This document shows, in pieces, positions 21,269 through 50,471 of a stretch of 64,000 bases of DNA. The DNA comes from an uncultured Chloroflexia bacterium. Lineage in GTDB: Bacteria; Chloroflexota; Limnocylindria; Limnocylindrales; CSP1-4. The notes beneath the pieces are model-generated. The model was not told the DNA's origin, ran no database searches, and saw only the letters and a program-made list of their open reading frames with translations. Numbering within the stretch: the stretch's first letter is position 1; each line of letters opens with the position of its first letter. Location: assembly GCA_963709605.1 (NCBI GenBank), contig CAVPWX010000020.1:401337-465336 (forward strand), given 5' to 3'. The position numbers were made by a program, and so were the translations under genes.

Positions 21269-21393
21269 GCGTCCTCATGGTACGGGCTGGCAGTCGGGAT
21301 GCGTCGGTCCCTCGGTCGCTGGGCGGGCCCGCCGGCGCCCTGCCGAGCGTGGCAGACTCCGCCGGTGACCCCCGAGCCCGGCCGGCGCGAAGC

Positions 21394-22358
21394 CGTGGCC
21401 GATCTGCCCGCGCCCGCCGCCGATCTGCCCGCGCCCGCCGCCGATCTGCCCGCGCCCGCCGCCGGGGCACCCCGCCCGTCGGCCTCGTACGCCGTCCTGC
21501 TGGGCGCGCTGTCCCTCATGTGGGGCAGCAGCTACCTCTTCATCAAGATCGGGGTCGAGACGCTCCCGCCGCTGAGCCTCGTGCTGCTGCGCGTGCTCGT
21601 CGGCTTCGCGATCCTGCTCCTCGTCGTGGCCGTCACGCGGACGCCGCTGCCGCGCGACGCCCGCACCCTCGGCCACCTTGCCGTCCTGGGTGCCGTCAAC
21701 ATCGCGATCCCGTTCTGGCTGATCGGCTGGGCCGAGCAGCACATCGACTCCGGCCTCGCCGGGATCCTCCAGTCGACCGCGCCCTTCTTCACTCTCGTCA
21801 TCGCCGCGACGTTCGTCCACGACGAGCAGGATCACCCGGGGGCGGCTGGCCGGCATCGGGCTCGGCTTCCTCGGCATCCTGGTCCTTTCTCTCGAGAACC
21901 TGGCCGACCTGGGCAGCGCCCTCGGCGCGGAGCGGCTGCTGGCGGAGCTCGCCGTCGTCGGCGCCTCGCTGGCCTACGCGGTCGGCAACACCTACGCGCG
22001 GCGCACCCTCCGGAACACCCGCCCGCTCGTGCTCTCGACGGGCCAGGTCGGGTGGGCGGTTGTGCTGGTGGCGATCCTCGCCTTCGTCGTCGATGGCGGC
22101 GTGACAATGCCGGCGGTGCCGGAGGCCGCCTTCTCCGTGCTCTGGCTCGGGGCGGTGGGGACCGGTTTCGCCTACATCGTCTTCTTCCGGCTGCTTACCG
22201 GCTGGGGACCCACGCGGGCCAGCCTCGTGGCCTACCTCCTGCCGGTCGTCGCGGTGATCCTCGGGGTCGTCGTGCTCGGCGAGACGGTGGACGCCCTGTT
22301 CCTGGCGGGTGCTGCGCTCATCGTCGCCGGCGTCTGGGTCGTCAACCGGAAGGGGTGA
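21394..22358 (+). CDS. EamA/DMT-family transporter (single-base insertion frameshift near 21827)
   Basis: Two EamA halves (LMWGSSYLFIKIG..., ...LGAVGTGFAYIVFF). The frame breaks at caGgatcacc. The start must precede TM1 (YAVLLGALSL), and the GTG at 21394 is a candidate. Confidence 0.6.
21398..21460. repeat. Perfect 3 x 21-bp tandem repeat (GCCGATCTGCCCGCGCCCGCC). If translated it encodes (ADLPAPA)x3.
   Basis: Direct reading. It lies between the divergent MFS and EamA genes, and may be inside the EamA N-terminus if the GTG at 21394 is used. Confidence 0.8.
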
Positions 22359-30899: not shown

Positions 30900-30916
30900 C
30901 GCGGCGGTCCGCTCCC

Positions 30917-33060
30917 CTAGATCCCGGCCCGGGCGGCGGGGAGCGGCGGCAGGCGCTTCTTCCCCCTGACCAGGAAGTGGTCGAACCAGCCGCGCACCTG
31001 GACCAGGTTCTCCACCCGCCGGTAGGGCGTCCCGGAGCGGGTCAGCTCGTGGCTCTCGTCGGGGACGCGCATCAGGCGGACCGGCCGCTTGAGCGTCCGC
31101 AGGACCGCGAACAGCGCCTCGGCCTGGCCGATCGGGCAGCGCAGGTCGTTCTCGGCGTGCTGGATGAGGAGCGGCGTCCGGATCCGGTCGGCGTAGGTGA
31201 TGGGAGAGAGCTCGCGATAGAGGTCCGGCTTCTCCCAGGGCCGAGCCCCGAACTCGAGGACCCCGAAGACGCCCCCGGCGAGGTCGCCGGTCAGCATCAG
31301 GCTGGTCAGGTCGGTGACGCTGCGGCAGGTCATCGCGGCCGCGAAGCGGTCGCTGTGGCCGATGATCCAGTTCGTCAGGTAGCCGCCGTAGGAGCCGCCC
31401 GTCACCCCCAGCCGGGCCGGGTCGGCGACGCCGGCCGCCACCAGCGCCTCGACGTGGGCCATGACGTCGCGCATCGGGCCATCGCCCCAGTCGGGGAGGT
31501 TCGCGCTGTTGAACTCCTCCCCGTAGCCCTCGGACCCGCGGGGGTTCGTGTAGAGCACGCTGACCCCGGCGCCGGCGAGGACCTGGAACTCCCAGCACGG
31601 GGCCCAGCCGTAGAGGGTGTGCGGGCCGCCGTGGATCTGCAGGACCAGCGGCGCCGCCTCGCCCCGCTCCGCCGCGGCGGAACGGAGGAGCCAGCCCTGG
31701 ACATCGCGCCCGTCCACGGTCTCCCAGCGCTCCTCCGGGACCCGGAGGTCCAGCTCGGCGAGGAGCGGGTCGTTGAAGGCAGTGACCCTGCGCAACGTCC
31801 GCGCGCGGAGCGACGCGGCCGTCGGGGCGCAGGTCGAGGACGTGGACGTCGGGCAGCGCCGTGGCCGCGGACCGGATCGCCGCCACGCGCGCCCCGCCGC
31901 CGGGCAGCGCGGCGACATCCCAGCCCGACAGGTAGTGGCGGTCGTCGGTCAGGCGCTCGACGGCACCGTCCACGAGCGCGATCCGCCACAGCTCGTAGGA
32001 GCCGCGGACCGGCGCCGTGAACAGGAGATGCCGCCCGTCGGGGGTGAGCCGGAGGCGGGGCGCCTCGCCCGGCGTGACGTCGCTGCCCATCGTCGCCGCG
32101 ACCATGAGGTCGGTCGGGCCGGAGAGGTTGCGGCCGCCACCGGGATGCGCCTCGGAGCCGTCGGCGGCAAAGAGCCAGACGTCGGTCCGGGAGCCGCCGA
32201 GACGCGGCCAACGATGCCCGGCAACGGCAAGCGTCGTCCCGTCGGGCAGCCAGGCCGGGGTGCCGAAGGCGCAGCCGGCGCCGTCGGTGACGCGCGTGAC
32301 CGCCCCGCTCGCCGACGTCGACGACGAAGACGTCGAACTGGTAGTCGAGGTCGTGGTCGCGGCCGCGCGAAGCCGAGAAGGCGATCCGCGTCCCGTCGGG
32401 CGACCAGGCCGGGCCCTCGTCGGTGGTCGGCCCGTCGGTGAGACGGCGGGCAGCACCGGTCTCGGCGTCGACGAGCCAGAGGTGGCCGACCTTGTCGTCG
32501 ATGAAGCCGGGCCCGTTGAGCACCCCCTGCAGGCGGTCGAAGTACCGGTAGTCGGAGTGGGGCATCTCGCCCGGCTGCGGCGGCTTCGGCTTCCCCCGGG
32601 CCCGGCGATCCTCCTCGCGTGTGGCCCCGAAGGAGGTGGTCCGCACCACGAGGGAACGGCCGTCGGGCGACCACTCGAACGCGTCGACGCCACGCGGGAG
32701 GTCCGTCAGGCGCCGCGCCTCTCCGCCGGTCAGCGGCAGGAGGTGGACCTGCGTGCCGTCCTCGCGGTCCTGGGGCGCGCCCGGCTCCTCCTCGACGAGC
32801 GGGCGCCGGTCGGACAGGAAGGCGAGGGTGCGGCCGTCCGGCGAGAAGCGGGGCCGCGTGTCGTGGCGAGCGCCGATCGTCACCTGGCGCGCTCCGGCGT
32901 TCCCGTCGACGGGAACCAGCCACACCGCGTGCCGATAGCCGTCCCGGCCGGGGGCCACGACCTGGACGGTCATCGCGACCAGAGCCCCGTCGGGCGAGAG
33001 GTGGGGGTCGGTGGGGATCCTGAGCCTGTAGAGGTCCTCGGGGGTCGGCGGTCGAAGCAT
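30917..33060 (-). CDS. S9 family serine peptidase (acylaminoacyl-peptidase/DPP-like; apparent frameshifts)
   Basis: N-terminal beta-propeller region (RFSPDGRTLAFLSDRR) and C-terminal alpha/beta hydrolase with GGSYGG. Split over ORFs 31402..33060 and 30917..31918. Confidence 0.75.
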
Positions 33061-33190: not shown

Positions 33191-34096
33191 ATGCGCATCC
33201 TTCTCGCCCTCGACGGCTCCCCGTCCGCCGACCGGGCGCGGGCGCTCGTCACCTCGCTCGCCTGGCCGCCGGGGACCACGATCCGTATCGTCGCCGCGCT
33301 CGACGTCGCCCCCGCGCTGTGGGGCGGGCCCTGGATCCCGGCCGTGCCCGTCGACGCCGACCAGATGGAGGACGAGGCCGTCGCCGAGCTGACCCGGGTC
33401 CTCCAGGAGGCCGGTCCGCCGCTGCAGTCCGCGGGCCTGACGGTGGAGGCCGAGCTCCTCCGCGGGCGCCCTTCGGCCGCCATCGTCGATGACGCGAGGC
33501 TGTGGGGGCCGGACCTCATCGTCGTCGGCAGTCGCGGCCACGGGCCGGTCGAGATCGCGGTGCTGGGCTCCGTCTCGGCGGCCGTTGTCGACCACGCCGC
33601 GTGCCCGGTCCTCGTCGCCCGCGGCGACCACGCCGCGCGGGTGATCCTCGCCGAGGACGGCTCCCCGGCCGGGATGGCCGCCCGGGACGTCGTGGCGACC
33701 TGGCCGGCCTTCGCGACGCTTCCGGTGCTGGTGGTCGGCGTCGTGGACGTCGCCGCGCCGTGGCGCTCGGGGATCGCGCCGACGATGTTCGCCGCCGCCA
33801 TGGACGTCTACACGGAGATGCTCGCGAACGCCCGGAACACCCACCGCGAGATCGTGGCCGCCACGGAAGCGTACCTCCGGGCGGCCGGGCGGCAGGCGGA
33901 CGGCGAGCTCCGGGAGGGCGACCCGTCGGACCAGCTTCGCCGCGCGGCCGGCGACCCGGCCGGCGACCTGCTCGTCGTCGGGTCCCGGGGCCACGTGGGG
34001 ATCACCCGGCTCGTCATGGGCAGCGTGGCCCACTCGGTGCTGACCCACGCCCACTGCTCGGTGCTCGTCGTCAAGGGGTCGCACGAGGGCCACTGA
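33191..34096 (+). CDS. Tandem-domain universal stress protein (UspA x2)
   Basis: Two Usp domains, each ending ...VGSRGHG...VLGSV...H..CPVLVV. Confidence 0.75.
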   Translation: MRILLALDGSPSADRARALVTSLAWPPGTTIRIVAALDVAPALWGGPWIPAVPVDADQMEDEAVAELTRVLQEAGPPLQSAGLTVEAELLRGRPSAAIVDDARLWGPDLIVVGSRGHGPVEIAVLGSVSAAVVDHAACPVLVARGDHAARVILAEDGSPAGMAARDVVATWPAFATLPVLVVGVVDVAAPWRSGIAPTMFAAAMDVYTEMLANARNTHREIVAATEAYLRAAGRQADGELREGDPSDQLRRAAGDPAGDLLVVGSRGHVGITRLVMGSVAHSVLTHAHCSVLVVKGSHEGH

Positions 34097-34126
34097 ACGG
34101 CCCGTCCGGCAGGGGCGCGTCCTGCG

Positions 34127-34461
34127 CCGCCGTGCGCGCCGGGGCCCGCCCGATCGGTCCTGCGATCGGTCCGGTGACGGCCACGCCCGGTGAGAGGGGC
34201 GATCCGTCGGAACCGCCGAGCGATCACGCTCGGCTGTCGCCACCGCGCGCGCAGGACCGATCACCCCGGGGAGCCGGGCTCCGACGTGCGCTTGATCGCC
34301 GGGACGCGCCCCGCCGTGCGCGCCGGGGCCCGCCCGATCGGTCCTGCGATCGGTCCGGTGACGGCCACGCCCGGTCAGAGGGGCGATCCGTCGGAACCGC
34401 CGAGCGATCACGCTCGGCTGTCGCCACCGCGCGCGCAGGACCGATCACCCCGGGGAGCCGG
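34127..34461. repeat. Two copies of a 151-bp element (34127-34277 and 34311-34461, 1 mismatch). Each contains 13-bp terminal inverted repeats, GATCGGTCCTGCG...CGCAGGACCGATC. MITE/REP-like.
   Basis: Direct reading. It is intergenic, between uspA and a convergent permease gene. Confidence 0.8.
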
Positions 34462-34490
34462 CCCGCCGGGCCCCGAGCCGGCCCGCCTGG

Positions 34491-34605
34491 CCTGCCCTGC
34501 CTCGGCCGGCGCCCCGGAGGCGGGCCGGCACCCGGCCCTGCCTCGGCCGGCGCCCCGGAGGCGGCCCGGCTCGGAGGCGGCCCTGCCTCGGCCGGCGCTT
34601 CGGCA
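34491..34605. repeat. Short tandem repeats CTGCCTCGGCCGGCGCCCCGGAGGCG, two copies plus a partial third
   Basis: Direct reading. Confidence 0.7.
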
Positions 34606-34650
34606 ACCCTGCCCGCCGTGGCGGCGGCCCACTCGCGGCCGGAGCCGCCG

Positions 34651-35916
34651 TCAGCGGCTGCGGGCCGCCCGGACCACCCCGCCGACGCTCGGTCGCTGCC
34701 CGTAGAGGAGGACGCCGGCCGCGTAGATCCGGGCCGCGACCAGGAGGGCGATAAGGATCGCCGCGACCAGGAGGCCGATCGCGAGCGCCAGCTCCCACGG
34801 CTCCACCCATCCGACGACGAGGCGCGTCAGCATCAGGTAGGGGCTGAAGAAGGGCAGCCAGGAGAGCGGGGCCACCCACGGCGCGGCAGGGTTGGTCGAG
34901 GCGAAGAAGGCGGCGAAGTACGCCGCGAACGAGAGCATCAGCATCGGGAGGGCCACCTGCTGGACGTCCTCCTGGCGGCTCACCAGCGAGCCCGCCGCGG
35001 CGTAGACGAGCGCGGTCAGGACGAACCCGAGGAGGAAGAAGACGACGAAGGCGGCCAGGATACCGGGTGTCAGCCCGGCGAGGGGCGTGCCGTCGCCGGC
35101 CTCGCCCAGCACCAGGCGGGCCAGCGGCCCCTGGAGGGCCACCACCGCGGCCGCGGGCAGCACGATGGCGGCCAGCTGGGTCAGGCCGGCGCCCCCGACG
35201 CCCACCACCTTGCCGGCCAGCATCTCCCCGGGGGTCGCGGCATTCAGCATCACCTCCATGACGCGGCTCGACTTCTCCTCGGCGACGCTCGTCGCGACCC
35301 ACATCCCGTAGGTCACCGAGGTGACGAAGACGAGGATGACGAGGATCGTGGCGAGGATCTGGTTGCCCGCGGCGTCGAGCTCCGAGCCTCCCGGCCTGTC
35401 GCCCGGGATGGCGTCGGTCACCACGAACTCGCCGATCAGCCCCTTTGCCTCGTCGGCCCGGATGCTCGCCGCGACGGCGACCGCCACGAGCCGGAACAGG
35501 ATCGCCTGCCGGCCGGCCGGGTTCCCGGTGACGTATTCGAAGTCGAGCCGCTCCTCGGCCCCGATCGTCACGACGAGCAGGCCGTCGAGCGTCCCGGCGG
35601 CGACCTCGGCGCGGGCCTCCGGCACGTCCGCCGGGTCGACGAGGATGAACTCGTAGATCGGGCTGGCCGTCGGGTCGAGGCCGGCGCCTTCGTTGAGGAC
35701 GATCTCCAGCGAGCGAAGCGTCAGGTCGGCGGTCCGGGCGTCGGGCGCGCTGGCCGCGATCCGGACGACGGACTCGCGCTCGAGGACGCGGATGGCCAGC
35801 GGGGCGAGCGCGGCGGCAGTGGCCACCACCGCGAGGACGAGCGTGGAGATCGCGAAGGCCCGGCTCCGGACGCGGACGCCGTACTCGCGCCCGGCCACGA
35901 GACGGGCGTTGCGCAC
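34651..35916 (-). CDS. ABC-2/YhgE-like multi-TM permease (orphan, no adjacent ATPase)
   Basis: N-terminal TM, large extracytoplasmic region, then about 5 C-terminal TMs. The start is uncertain (GTG at 35916). Confidence 0.5.
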   Translation of the reverse strand: MRNARLVAGREYGVRVRSRAFAISTLVLAVVATAAALAPLAIRVLERESVVRIAASAPDARTADLTLRSLEIVLNEGAGLDPTASPIYEFILVDPADVPEARAEVAAGTLDGLLVVTIGAEERLDFEYVTGNPAGRQAILFRLVAVAVAASIRADEAKGLIGEFVVTDAIPGDRPGGSELDAAGNQILATILVILVFVTSVTYGMWVATSVAEEKSSRVMEVMLNAATPGEMLAGKVVGVGGAGLTQLAAIVLPAAAVVALQGPLARLVLGEAGDGTPLAGLTPGILAAFVVFFLLGFVLTALVYAAAGSLVSRQEDVQQVALPMLMLSFAAYFAAFFASTNPAAPWVAPLSWLPFFSPYLMLTRLVVGWVEPWELALAIGLLVAAILIALLVAARIYAAGVLLYGQRPSVGGVVRAARSR

Positions 35917-35997
35917 GAAGACGGAGCCGGGGTCGCTGCGACGCACGGGCGAAGTCTGCCGGAACCTGCCTTCCGGCGCCGCCCGTACAATCCGGGC

Positions 35998-36390
35998 ATG
36001 ACCTCCAGCTACCTCCGGGGCGACGACGTGACGGCGCCGCTGCGCATCCACGCCGATCGCGAGGCGCGGACCCTCCGCATCGACTGGGCCGACGGCCACG
36101 TCTCCACATACGGCTTCGACCTCCTCCGCTGGCTATGCCCCTGCGCCTACTGCCGCGGCGAGGCCGGGCTCCCGGGCTGGCTGGACTCGAACCCCACCCT
36201 CACGGCCAAGCAGACGCGGCTCGTCTCGATCGAGCCGGTCGGCGGGTACGCGATCGCGCCGTCGTGGGGTGACGGGCACCACACCGGCTTCTACACGTAC
36301 ACCGCGCTGCGCGCCCACTGCCCCTGCCCAGCCTGCGTCGCCGCCCGAACTGCCGGCGGGCATCCCGATCCGGGCCGCCCGTCCGCCTGA
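35998..36390 (+). CDS. DUF971 (gamma-butyrobetaine hydroxylase-like N-terminal domain) Cys-rich protein
   Basis: CPCAYC...CPCPAC motifs. 130 aa. Confidence 0.5.
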   Translation: MTSSYLRGDDVTAPLRIHADREARTLRIDWADGHVSTYGFDLLRWLCPCAYCRGEAGLPGWLDSNPTLTAKQTRLVSIEPVGGYAIAPSWGDGHHTGFYTYTALRAHCPCPACVAARTAGGHPDPGRPSA

Positions 36391-48601: not shown

Positions 48602-50471
48602 TCAGGCGACGAGCGCGGTGGGGGCGAGGGTTCGCTCGAGGAGCTCGGTCAGCCGGTCGAGGCCCATGACCTCGCCGTCGAGCAGGGGCACCTCGAGGAC
48701 CGGGACCGAGAAGCGCTGCTCGATGTCGGCGAGGTATGACTGCTGCATGTTCCAGCGCGCCCGCGAGTACGGCGTCTGCAGGGCATCGTCGGGCAGGACC
48801 ATGTTGGCGACGACGAGTCCCAACGGGATCCCGAGCGATTCCAGCTCGGCGATGGCGCGCGTTGCCTCGACGATCGGCGTTGCCTCCGGGTACATCACGA
48901 AGGCGAACGTGCTCTCGGCCGGGTCGCGCATCATCTCGATGACCCGGCTGAACTGGGCCTTCGCGACGTCGTCGGCGGCGGCCGTGTCGACCGAGGCGAA
49001 GACCTTGATGTCGATCTGGCGGCTCCAGTCGATGGGGAGCTCGAGCAGCCGCAGGGTGTGGCCCGTCGGCGCCGTGTCGAAGACGGTGACGTCGAACGCG
49101 TCGCGGCTGGCCAGCTCGATGAACTGGTCGAACGCCGCCATCTCCTCGGTGCACGGCGAGTCGAGCTCCTCGCGCATCGCGGCGATCGAGGCCGGGCTCC
49201 GGCCGCGCGCGACCGCGTCGGCAATGATCCGATCGGTGTAGGCGATGGCCGCGGCCTTGGCGTCGACGCGGGCCGCCCAGAGGCCGTCCACGCCGTCCAC
49301 CGGCGCGGGCTCCGTCCCGACCGTCGCGCCGAGGACCTGCCCGATGTGGGCCGCGGGATCGGTCGTCACCAGGAGGGTGCGATGACCCTGGCGCGCCGAC
49401 CAGAGGGCGGTGGCGCAGGACGCGACCGTCTTGCCGACGCCGCCCTTGCCGGCAAAGAAGATCGTCCGAGGGCTCCCGTTCGGCAGGAGCGCCGCCGCCA
49501 CGGCCGCCTCGTCGTCGCGCGTCGCCCGCGTCGACCCGCGGTCCGCATGGCCGAAGGCCGGCCTCGTGGCGTGCTCGTCGGCGAGGAGCGGGACCAGGGC
49601 CCGCAGCCGCGCGATCCCGCGGACCTCGCCGTCGAGGAGCGGGACGCGCCGGGTCGGCATCGGCAGCTGGCGCGCGATCTCGGCGAGGTAGCGCTCCTGC
49701 ATCGCGATGCGGGCAGCGAAGAACGGGGTCGAGGCCTCCTCGGCGGGCAGGATCCCGTTGACGATGAGCTCCGTCGTGACGATCCCGAGGCGGGCCAGCT
49801 CGGCGCCGGCGCGCCGCGTCTCGGCGATCGCGGTCGCCTCTGGATGGAGCACGAACGCGAACCGTGTCAGCGACTGGTCGCGCAGCGCGGCAAGTGCCCG
49901 CTCGTACTTGACCTTCGCCTCGGCGATGGCCGCCGCGGGGCCGATGCACGTCTGGCCGGCGCCCGCGTCGGCCTGCGAGATGCTCTTCGACCACGCCTCG
50001 GGCAGCTCGAGCAGGCGCACCGTGTGGCCGGTCGGCGCCGTGTCGAAGATCACCAGGTCGAAGCCGGGCGCCGGTGGGCGGCGCTGCGGGGGCCGGCGCC
50101 GTCGGGTCGAGGAAGTCGGCGAACCGATCGAAGGCTGCGACCTCCGCGGTGCAGGGCCCGGCGAGCTGCTCCTCCATGACCCGCACGATCTCCGGCGGGA
50201 AGATCTCGCGGATCGGGGCGAGCGTCCGGTCGGTGTACTCGGCAGTCGCACGGTCGGGGTCGATCTCCATCGCCGACAGGCTCGGCACGCCCACGATCCG
50301 GGTGATCGCGTGGCCGATGGGCTGCTCGAACACGTCCGCGAGGTTGGATGCCGGGTCCGTCGTCACGATCAGGACGCGCGTGCCGGCATCGGCCTCCGCG
50401 ACCGCGGTCGTGCAGGCCATCGTCGTCTTGCCGACGCCGCCCTTGCCGGAGAAGAAGAGGAACTGGGTCAC
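48602..50471 (-). CDS. arsA: Arsenite-stimulated ATPase ArsA (apparent frameshift near 50100)
   Basis: Two halves, each with a P-loop (GKGGVGKTT, GKGGVGKTV) and the DTAPTGHT signature. Cys are present at the expected metalloid-site positions (GPCTAEVAAFDRF, GQTCIGP, SPCTEEMAAFDQF). Confidence 0.8.

Follow-up and report, generated by a model that had tools for sequence, protein, structure and literature searches.

A 151-nt palindromic repeat between convergent uspA-like and permease genes varies in copy number among close strains of an uncultured Chloroflexia bacterium

The intergenic region between a uspA-like gene and a convergent permease gene contains two almost identical copies of a 151-nt imperfect palindrome, which we term E. 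On balance we regard E as a lineage-specific palindromic repeat confined to this single locus, the copies of which would be gained and lost by recombination or slippage. E is a new but unremarkable variable intergenic palindromic repeat; the direct importance of the locus is small, and in most respects it is a fairly ordinary example of its kind. Yet at least three structural alleles segregate in natural populations, and these might serve as a metagenomic strain marker for an uncultured organism. Within one species-level lineage the spacer between the convergent genes has grown from about 50 bp to 300–550 bp, and the locus amounts to a small natural experiment on the growth and collapse of hairpin-rich 3′ spacers. 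Throughout, the window denotes the whole 64-kb stretch of DNA that was analysed, of which the G+C content is 73.6%.

The two copies lie at 34127–34277 (E1) and 34311–34461 (E2), as the earlier note had proposed, and over their 151 nt there is a single mismatch, G34192 in E1 corresponding to C34376 in E2. The identity stretches outwards to 34124 and 34308 if one further mismatch is allowed. TRF describes the pair as a repeat of period 184 bp, with 1.8 copies and 99% matches, and a scan of the window shows that no other near-identical repeat in the 64 kb approaches it in length. Each copy includes a 111-bp core (34152–34262 in E1 and 34336–34446 in E2) enclosed by a perfect 13-bp inverted repeat, GATCGGTCCTGCG / CGCAGGACCGATC, and this internal unit, also described before, is present in both. 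The 13-bp motif is found four times in the window, where 0.56 matches are expected. The left arm of E1 (34152–34172, plus strand) has the form GATCGGTCC-TGC-GATCGGTCC, a direct duplication with a 12-bp period. The first 13 nt of this arm (34152–34164) pair with the right arm of the inverted repeat at 34250–34262 (minus strand, CGCAGGACCGATC); the equivalent arms of E2 are 34336–34348 and 34434–34446. The duplicated arm had been noticed in the first reading of the sequence, and it indeed occurs at just two places in the window, both inside E copies, against an expectation of 0.01. The inner palindrome CGAGCG-ATCA-CGCTCG, reported at the same time, is present as well. In E1 it forms the hairpin CCGAGCG-ATCA-CGCTCGG at 34216–34235, which is unchanged in all 13 of the E copies compared.

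The location between uspA and a convergent permease gene agrees with the Pfam assignments of both neighbours. On the left is a gene for a tandem-domain universal stress protein of 301 aa (33191–34096, plus strand), in which two stretches match PF00582 (Usp) with an E-value of 1.6e-41. Its stop codon is 30 nt upstream of E1, and the intervening left flank (34097–34126) is identical in 13 of 14 close-strain contigs, two bases being different in the remaining one (L030), and is unalignable in sister lineages. On the right the gene of an ABC-2 type transporter permease (34651–36099, minus strand; PF12698, ABC2_membrane_3, E-value 1.5e-29) ends with its stop codon at 34651–34653.

The two copies of E are separated by a 33-bp spacer (34278–34310), GCTCCGACGTGCGCTTGATCGCCGGGACGCGCC, that is unique within the window. 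There is no counterpart of this segment before E1 or after E2, and thus the large repeat is not strictly head-to-tail. We considered whether the spacer could be a degenerate third copy, and rejected this; 187 of 1000 shuffled sequences align as well as the spacer does in its best local match, which is to nucleotides 1–27 of E, and neither E nor the flanks resemble the spacer more than they do shuffled sequence. Beyond E2 the DNA is occupied by shorter repeats. A 20-bp tandem repeat of 1.9 copies (34455–34492), GAGCCGGCCCGCCGGGCCCC, begins within the final 7 nt of E2, and there is also a GC-rich array of 41-bp period (34465–34598; 3.2 copies, 82% matches) with hairpin potential. The sequence and copy number of this array vary between strains (compared in the window, L001, L013, L022 and L030). 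A 26-bp repeat reported here earlier is real and belongs to the 41-bp array, but the count of 2.5 copies was not correct; there are three 26-nt cores, spaced by 41 and 45 bp.

How variable is the locus in nature? The region is spanned by 14 contigs, 97–99.9% identical to the window, in assemblies from ENA, JGI and Logan, and these reveal three structural alleles among close strains: a doublet, a singlet, and a singlet with 12 nt of the spacer. The doublet, E–spacer–E (allele A), is found in the window and in L029, an independent short-read contig (k141, megahit) from another sample that has spacer variants of its own. In allele B what comes after copy 2 in the doublet adjoins a single E with nothing between, and this arrangement is present in at least nine contigs (L001, L003, L004, L013, L022, L024 and L026–28). 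Allele C, represented by L030, comprises one E and the first 12 nt of the spacer, GCTCCGACGTGC, which run straight into the short-repeat array with a microhomology of TGC at the junction. The 184-bp period is therefore present in 1.8 copies in the window and L029, and in one elsewhere. The polymorphism at 34192 segregates in the singlets too, of which L004 has G and the others C. Over 1166 bases a single position separates L004 from the window, and yet L004 is a singlet carrying the G allele of copy 1, the pattern expected from a recent crossover between the copies.

The distribution of the alleles can be set against a tree of the flanking DNA, constructed from distances over 1.35 kb of the upstream flank, in which there are two clades. 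Clade I contains the window (A), L029 (A), L003 (B) and L030 (C), and clade II contains B alleles exclusively. Judged from these sequences, the singlet and remnant alleles of clade I would most simply be deletions from a doublet. Either doublet or singlet is compatible with the flank tree as the ancestral state.

Nine columns vary in an alignment of 13 full E copies, one of them through a 1-nt indel in L024 and L026–L028; the same indel is found in the shorter E copies of L023 and L025, which lie outside that alignment. We rejected a coding function for E, given this 1-nt indel in several strains and overlapping open reading frames that have no Pfam match. Variation is not evenly spread along the locus. 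Comparing the window with L029 over a colinear intergenic stretch of 285 nt, five of the six differences fall within 34274–34308 (L029:3583–3617), which comprises the last 4 nt of E1 and the 33-bp spacer, so that there are five differences in about 35 nt. By comparison there is one difference in the first 147 nt of E1 (Fisher p = 0.0013 against the junction, for a contrast chosen post hoc in a single pair). In the same pair the third codon positions of UspA have diverged by 3.3%. The spacer is the fastest-diverging part of the locus; it is variant in L029, and cut back to its first 12 nt in L030. The pattern hints that the core of E may be constrained, or homogenized between copies, while the junction is fast evolving, perhaps hypervariable.

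UspA orthologues form a graded series of 70–100% identity. Sister lineages, in which UspA is 82–92% identical, keep the same succession of genes: S9 peptidase, UspA, ABC-2 permease and GBBH-like protein. Their spacers between UspA and the permease are 51–142 bp in length and cannot be aligned with that of the window, and E is absent. The absence of E from the sister spacers indicates that it is specific to one species-level lineage. One orthologue of UspA, at 87% identity, carries the NCBI name of a Chloroflexota MAG, from which a Chloroflexota host is probable. In one sister (L016:3407–3548, UspA 86% identical) the same spacer has tandem repeats of its own, GGCGAGTCGGGCGCCGAGG-like and in about three copies, that are unrelated to those of the window. 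On the evidence of such sequences the convergent uspA/permease spacer seems to be prone to repeats across the clade.

Our searches for further copies of E covered a wide range of sequence. In the 64-kb window no other copy was found by a mismatch-tolerant pattern, by blastn with a word size of 7, or by nhmmer --max with a profile of the 13 copies, and nhmmer --max over all the loci fetched returned the known E copies and nothing more. The 21-mer of the left arm, GATCGGTCCTGCGATCGGTCC, was sought in one genome from each of 185,579 species (the GTDB representatives), giving six matches that were all unrelated and had no flanking similarity to E. We dismissed these as chance, some of them being microsatellite arrays of the 12-nt sequence TGCGATCGGTCC. 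This 12-mer is the one duplicated in the left arm of E, and it forms microsatellite arrays at L008:447–494 (Pseudonocardia sp. CNS-004) and at L009:7211–7244. The existence of such arrays in unrelated high-GC genomes accounts for the chance matches, and as far as sequence can tell it suggests that the 12-bp duplication of the arm is a product of ordinary slippage. A scan of the JGI metagenome contig collection with the same 21-mer gave one true match, at the orthologous locus L013, together with two chance matches; of the metagenomes scanned, one contains this species, and there the 21-mer was found solely at the E locus. There was no match to E in viral contigs, plasmids or phages. Six-frame translation of E against 5.8 billion protein clusters returned nothing at an E-value of ≤1, a weak test in that the query was of low complexity and 8000 candidates were scored. 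Rfam gave no match at gathering score in the window, and none at an E-value of ≤10 in 34000–34750, and a search for tRNA and tmRNA genes found none. In the sequences searched, E is on balance a single-locus repeat, not a member of a dispersed mobile family.

The earlier note had viewed the region as an array of MITE- or REP-like elements, and this description is not supported. There are no dispersed copies in the sequences searched, no target-site duplication and no Rfam match, the inverted repeats are internal, and E is unlike a REP in size and sequence. It had also been argued that an element unique to this locus and untranscribed would be a simple local duplication. In the data searched E is indeed unique to the locus, but the pair is not a simple duplication, because 33 bp of unrelated DNA lie between the copies and the doublet is an established polymorphism of the population. 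Before an element that resembles a MITE in one sequence is called mobile, evidence of both its copy number and its population distribution is needed.

A mobile origin is nevertheless the alternative that calls for the closest attention. E might be a low-copy non-autonomous element, MITE-like or some other palindromic unit, that inserted twice 33 bp apart in the same orientation and has further copies outside the window. We consider this unlikely. The boundaries of the duplication are sharp and match the complete 151-nt hairpin, unrelated DNA separates the copies, and two insertions of a mobile unit explain these features more easily than does plain tandem duplication, against which both of them stand. 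Moreover the orthologous site is empty in the sister lineages, the 13-bp inverted repeat is perfect, and MITEs of low copy number are documented, some having as few as 1–22 copies per genome (PMC10969869). The insertion polymorphism, E being absent from the sisters and present in one or two copies in close strains, fits deletion or duplication equally well. Against mobility, no further copy was found in the window, the GTDB representatives, the JGI contig subset, plasmids, phages or viral contigs, and the anatomy is not that of a MITE. The 13-bp arms are not terminal, for the 151-nt unit extends 25 nt beyond them on one side and 15 nt on the other, and its outermost parts pair imperfectly. No target-site duplication is seen at the boundaries of the 151-nt unit, flanked by CTGCG and GCTCC for copy 1 and by CGCC and CCCGCC for copy 2, nor at those of the 111-nt core, flanked by CGCCC and ACCCC. 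Finally, allowing up to one mismatch, there is no other match to the 13-mer in the window that could mark the end of an IS. Compared with the Correia elements of Neisseria, ERIC/IRU of the enterobacteria and MITEAba12 of Acinetobacter, E is similar in being intergenic and in the range of about 100–200 bp, in having inverted repeats that permit a long hairpin in DNA or RNA, and in its presence or absence among related genomes. It differs from them in having, in the collections searched, no dispersed copies and no sequence match, in the lack of a target-site duplication, in a perfect inverted repeat that is 13 bp long and non-terminal, and in that no related IS or transposase was identified.

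An alternative that assigns a function to the RNA sees in E a gene for a small structured RNA, present twice in some strains, or an sRNA derived from the 3′UTR by processing of uspA mRNA. The predicted fold of E1 is an extended hairpin, with an outer stem formed by nucleotides 4–18 and 137–151 of the unit. For a single E the calculated energies are −89.2 kcal/mol (z = −2.4) for the plus strand and −90.4 kcal/mol (z = −1.9) for the minus strand, so that by this modelling it folds modestly better than shuffled sequences. The full intergenic spacer of 554 nt departs further from its shuffles, with z = −5.75 for the uspA-sense strand and z = −2.81 for the other. This asymmetry, and the contrast between the core and the junction in the window and L029, would favour an RNA function; gene conversion between the copies would also give a low divergence of E, however. 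The Rfam search is blank even at its most permissive, and no promoter-like or terminator-like site accompanies E. No sigma-70-type promoter was found near it, though that consensus may not apply to the host phylum. Compensatory changes are absent, the 13 copies and their nine variable columns giving zero compensatory pairs, in a sample that is uninformative for or against RNA structure, and E is confined to one species-level lineage. We judge an sRNA gene to be quite improbable. A broader proposal is that E represents either a low-copy palindromic mobile element of an undescribed type or an sRNA gene, structured and species-specific; the doublet would then be the trace of two insertions or duplications, and the conservation of the core beside a fast-diverging spacer would reflect function. 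This strikes us as unlikely.

Two further explanations carry less weight. E could act at the level of DNA as a cluster of binding sites for a regulator, recombinase or nucleoid protein. There are three GATCGGTCC 9-mers per E, two of them direct and 12 bp apart, roughly one helical turn, and the third inverted 90 bp further on; the window has 10 occurrences of the 9-mer where 2.8 are expected, six of them inside the two E copies. The other four matches are at background level, however, and the 12-bp direct repeat resembles slippage, TGCGATCGGTCC arrays arising by chance in unrelated genomes. Both neighbours have their 3′ ends at the spacer, which leaves a regulator no promoter to act on, and we think a binding-site cluster very unlikely. 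The element contains five GATC sequences in 151 nt, which places it in the top 2% or so of windows in a genome that has 9.5 per kb; this density is ordinary for the genome, and we discarded a Dam/SeqA-type signal. Alternatively the doublet could be an artefact in the assembly of the window contig, which was probably built from long reads. Indel errors are suggested by two 1-nt insertions in its S9 peptidase gene, and most other contigs are singlets. Yet the short-read contig L029 has E–spacer–E with its own spacer variants, and L030 retains the first 12 nt of the spacer. These two contigs largely refute an artefact, which is now extremely improbable.

Other classes of repetitive element were rejected on anatomy. 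CRISPR, integron attC, retron and DGR TR/VR structures are ruled out by a repeat of 151 nt that lacks a GTTRRRY-type core. Nor is a cas, integrase or reverse transcriptase gene adjacent to the locus, the neighbours being the S9 peptidase, Usp, the ABC-2 permease, the GBBH-like protein and a polyphosphate kinase. The difference between the copies is at a G/C position and not at adenines, unlike DGR-type variation.

E shares something with several known systems. The REP and BIME sequences are GC-rich extragenic palindromes mobilized by RAYT transposases, often clustered, often found between convergent genes, and implicated in 3′-end protection of mRNA and in termination. Individual REPs are about 20–40 nt in length with a conserved 5′ tetranucleotide, and are present in tens to hundreds of copies per genome. 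E is likewise a GC-rich extragenic palindrome between convergent genes, but it has a unit of 151 nt, observed at one locus, and the window contains no family of short repeated palindromes. The mycobacterial MIRU-VNTRs are head-to-tail units of 46–101 bp that belong to a family at some 40 loci. The resemblance here is in intergenic direct repeats that differ in number between close strains, as one or two copies at the 184-bp period and as variable 41-bp units. By analogy, slippage or unequal recombination is the likely source of the variation in number of both E and the 41-bp units. In contrast to the MIRU-VNTRs, E has an unrelated 33-bp spacer, no more than two copies and no other locus. Lastly, E is similar to the bidirectional hairpin terminators of high-GC bacteria that have no U-tract, with very stable predicted GC-rich hairpins placed between convergent stop codons. 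At this position the spacers of the sister lineages are shorter, and they too could form hairpins. E is nonetheless far longer than the usual terminator (151 nt, and branched), duplicated and devoid of a T-run. No Rho-independent terminator, defined as a hairpin followed by a T-run, was found on either strand in 33900–34900, although hairpins without a T-run are present there.

From the observed alleles, and from the restriction of E to a single locus in the sequences searched, we infer a route of gain and loss for the single-locus repeat, together with a role in RNA. The locus would expand and contract much as a minisatellite or VNTR does. A doublet would become a singlet when its two 151-nt direct repeats recombine homologously, or when replication slips from one to the other. 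The allele of L030 would arise by a microhomology-mediated deletion with TGC at the junction, and the short repeats and the 12-bp duplication of the left arm would expand through slippage in the same manner. In transcripts the long GC-rich hairpins might act as 3′-end structures for uspA and, on the opposite strand, for the permease, halting or stabilizing the convergent transcripts despite having no U-tract. The number of E copies could then tune the 3′-end effect, or be neutral. Among the functions suggested in the earlier note, that of terminator or mRNA stabilizer is the most plausible, and if E has any role it is probably, on the predicted structures, that of a 3′-end hairpin for convergent transcripts. 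Such a role has a precedent in MITEs located at the 3′ ends of genes, which can change the fate of the mRNA through cleavage by RNase III in the case of Correia and by RNase E in that of ERIC (PMC10969869).

Some further features were observed in the DNA around the locus. The S9/Tricorn-type peptidase gene upstream of uspA (minus strand, about 30900–33060) has two 1-nt insertions in the window relative to other strain contigs, at 31801 and at 32311–32315; the comparison was made with L001, L013 and L029 at both sites, and with L023 and L030 at the second. An intact open reading frame of 713 aa is found in L001, L015, L016 and L029, and out-of-frame open reading frames in the window. The split gene is either a pseudogene in the window strain or the result of indel errors in long-read assembly. 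The scan of the whole window for repeats also found a tandem repeat of 21-bp period at 21371–21454, CCCGCCGCCGATCTGCCCGCG, in about four copies. In a coding region on the minus strand, the segments 49034–49461 and 50000–50458 are 82–83% identical and about 970–1000 bp apart, which suggests that they belong to adjacent paralogous genes that may have arisen by tandem gene duplication.
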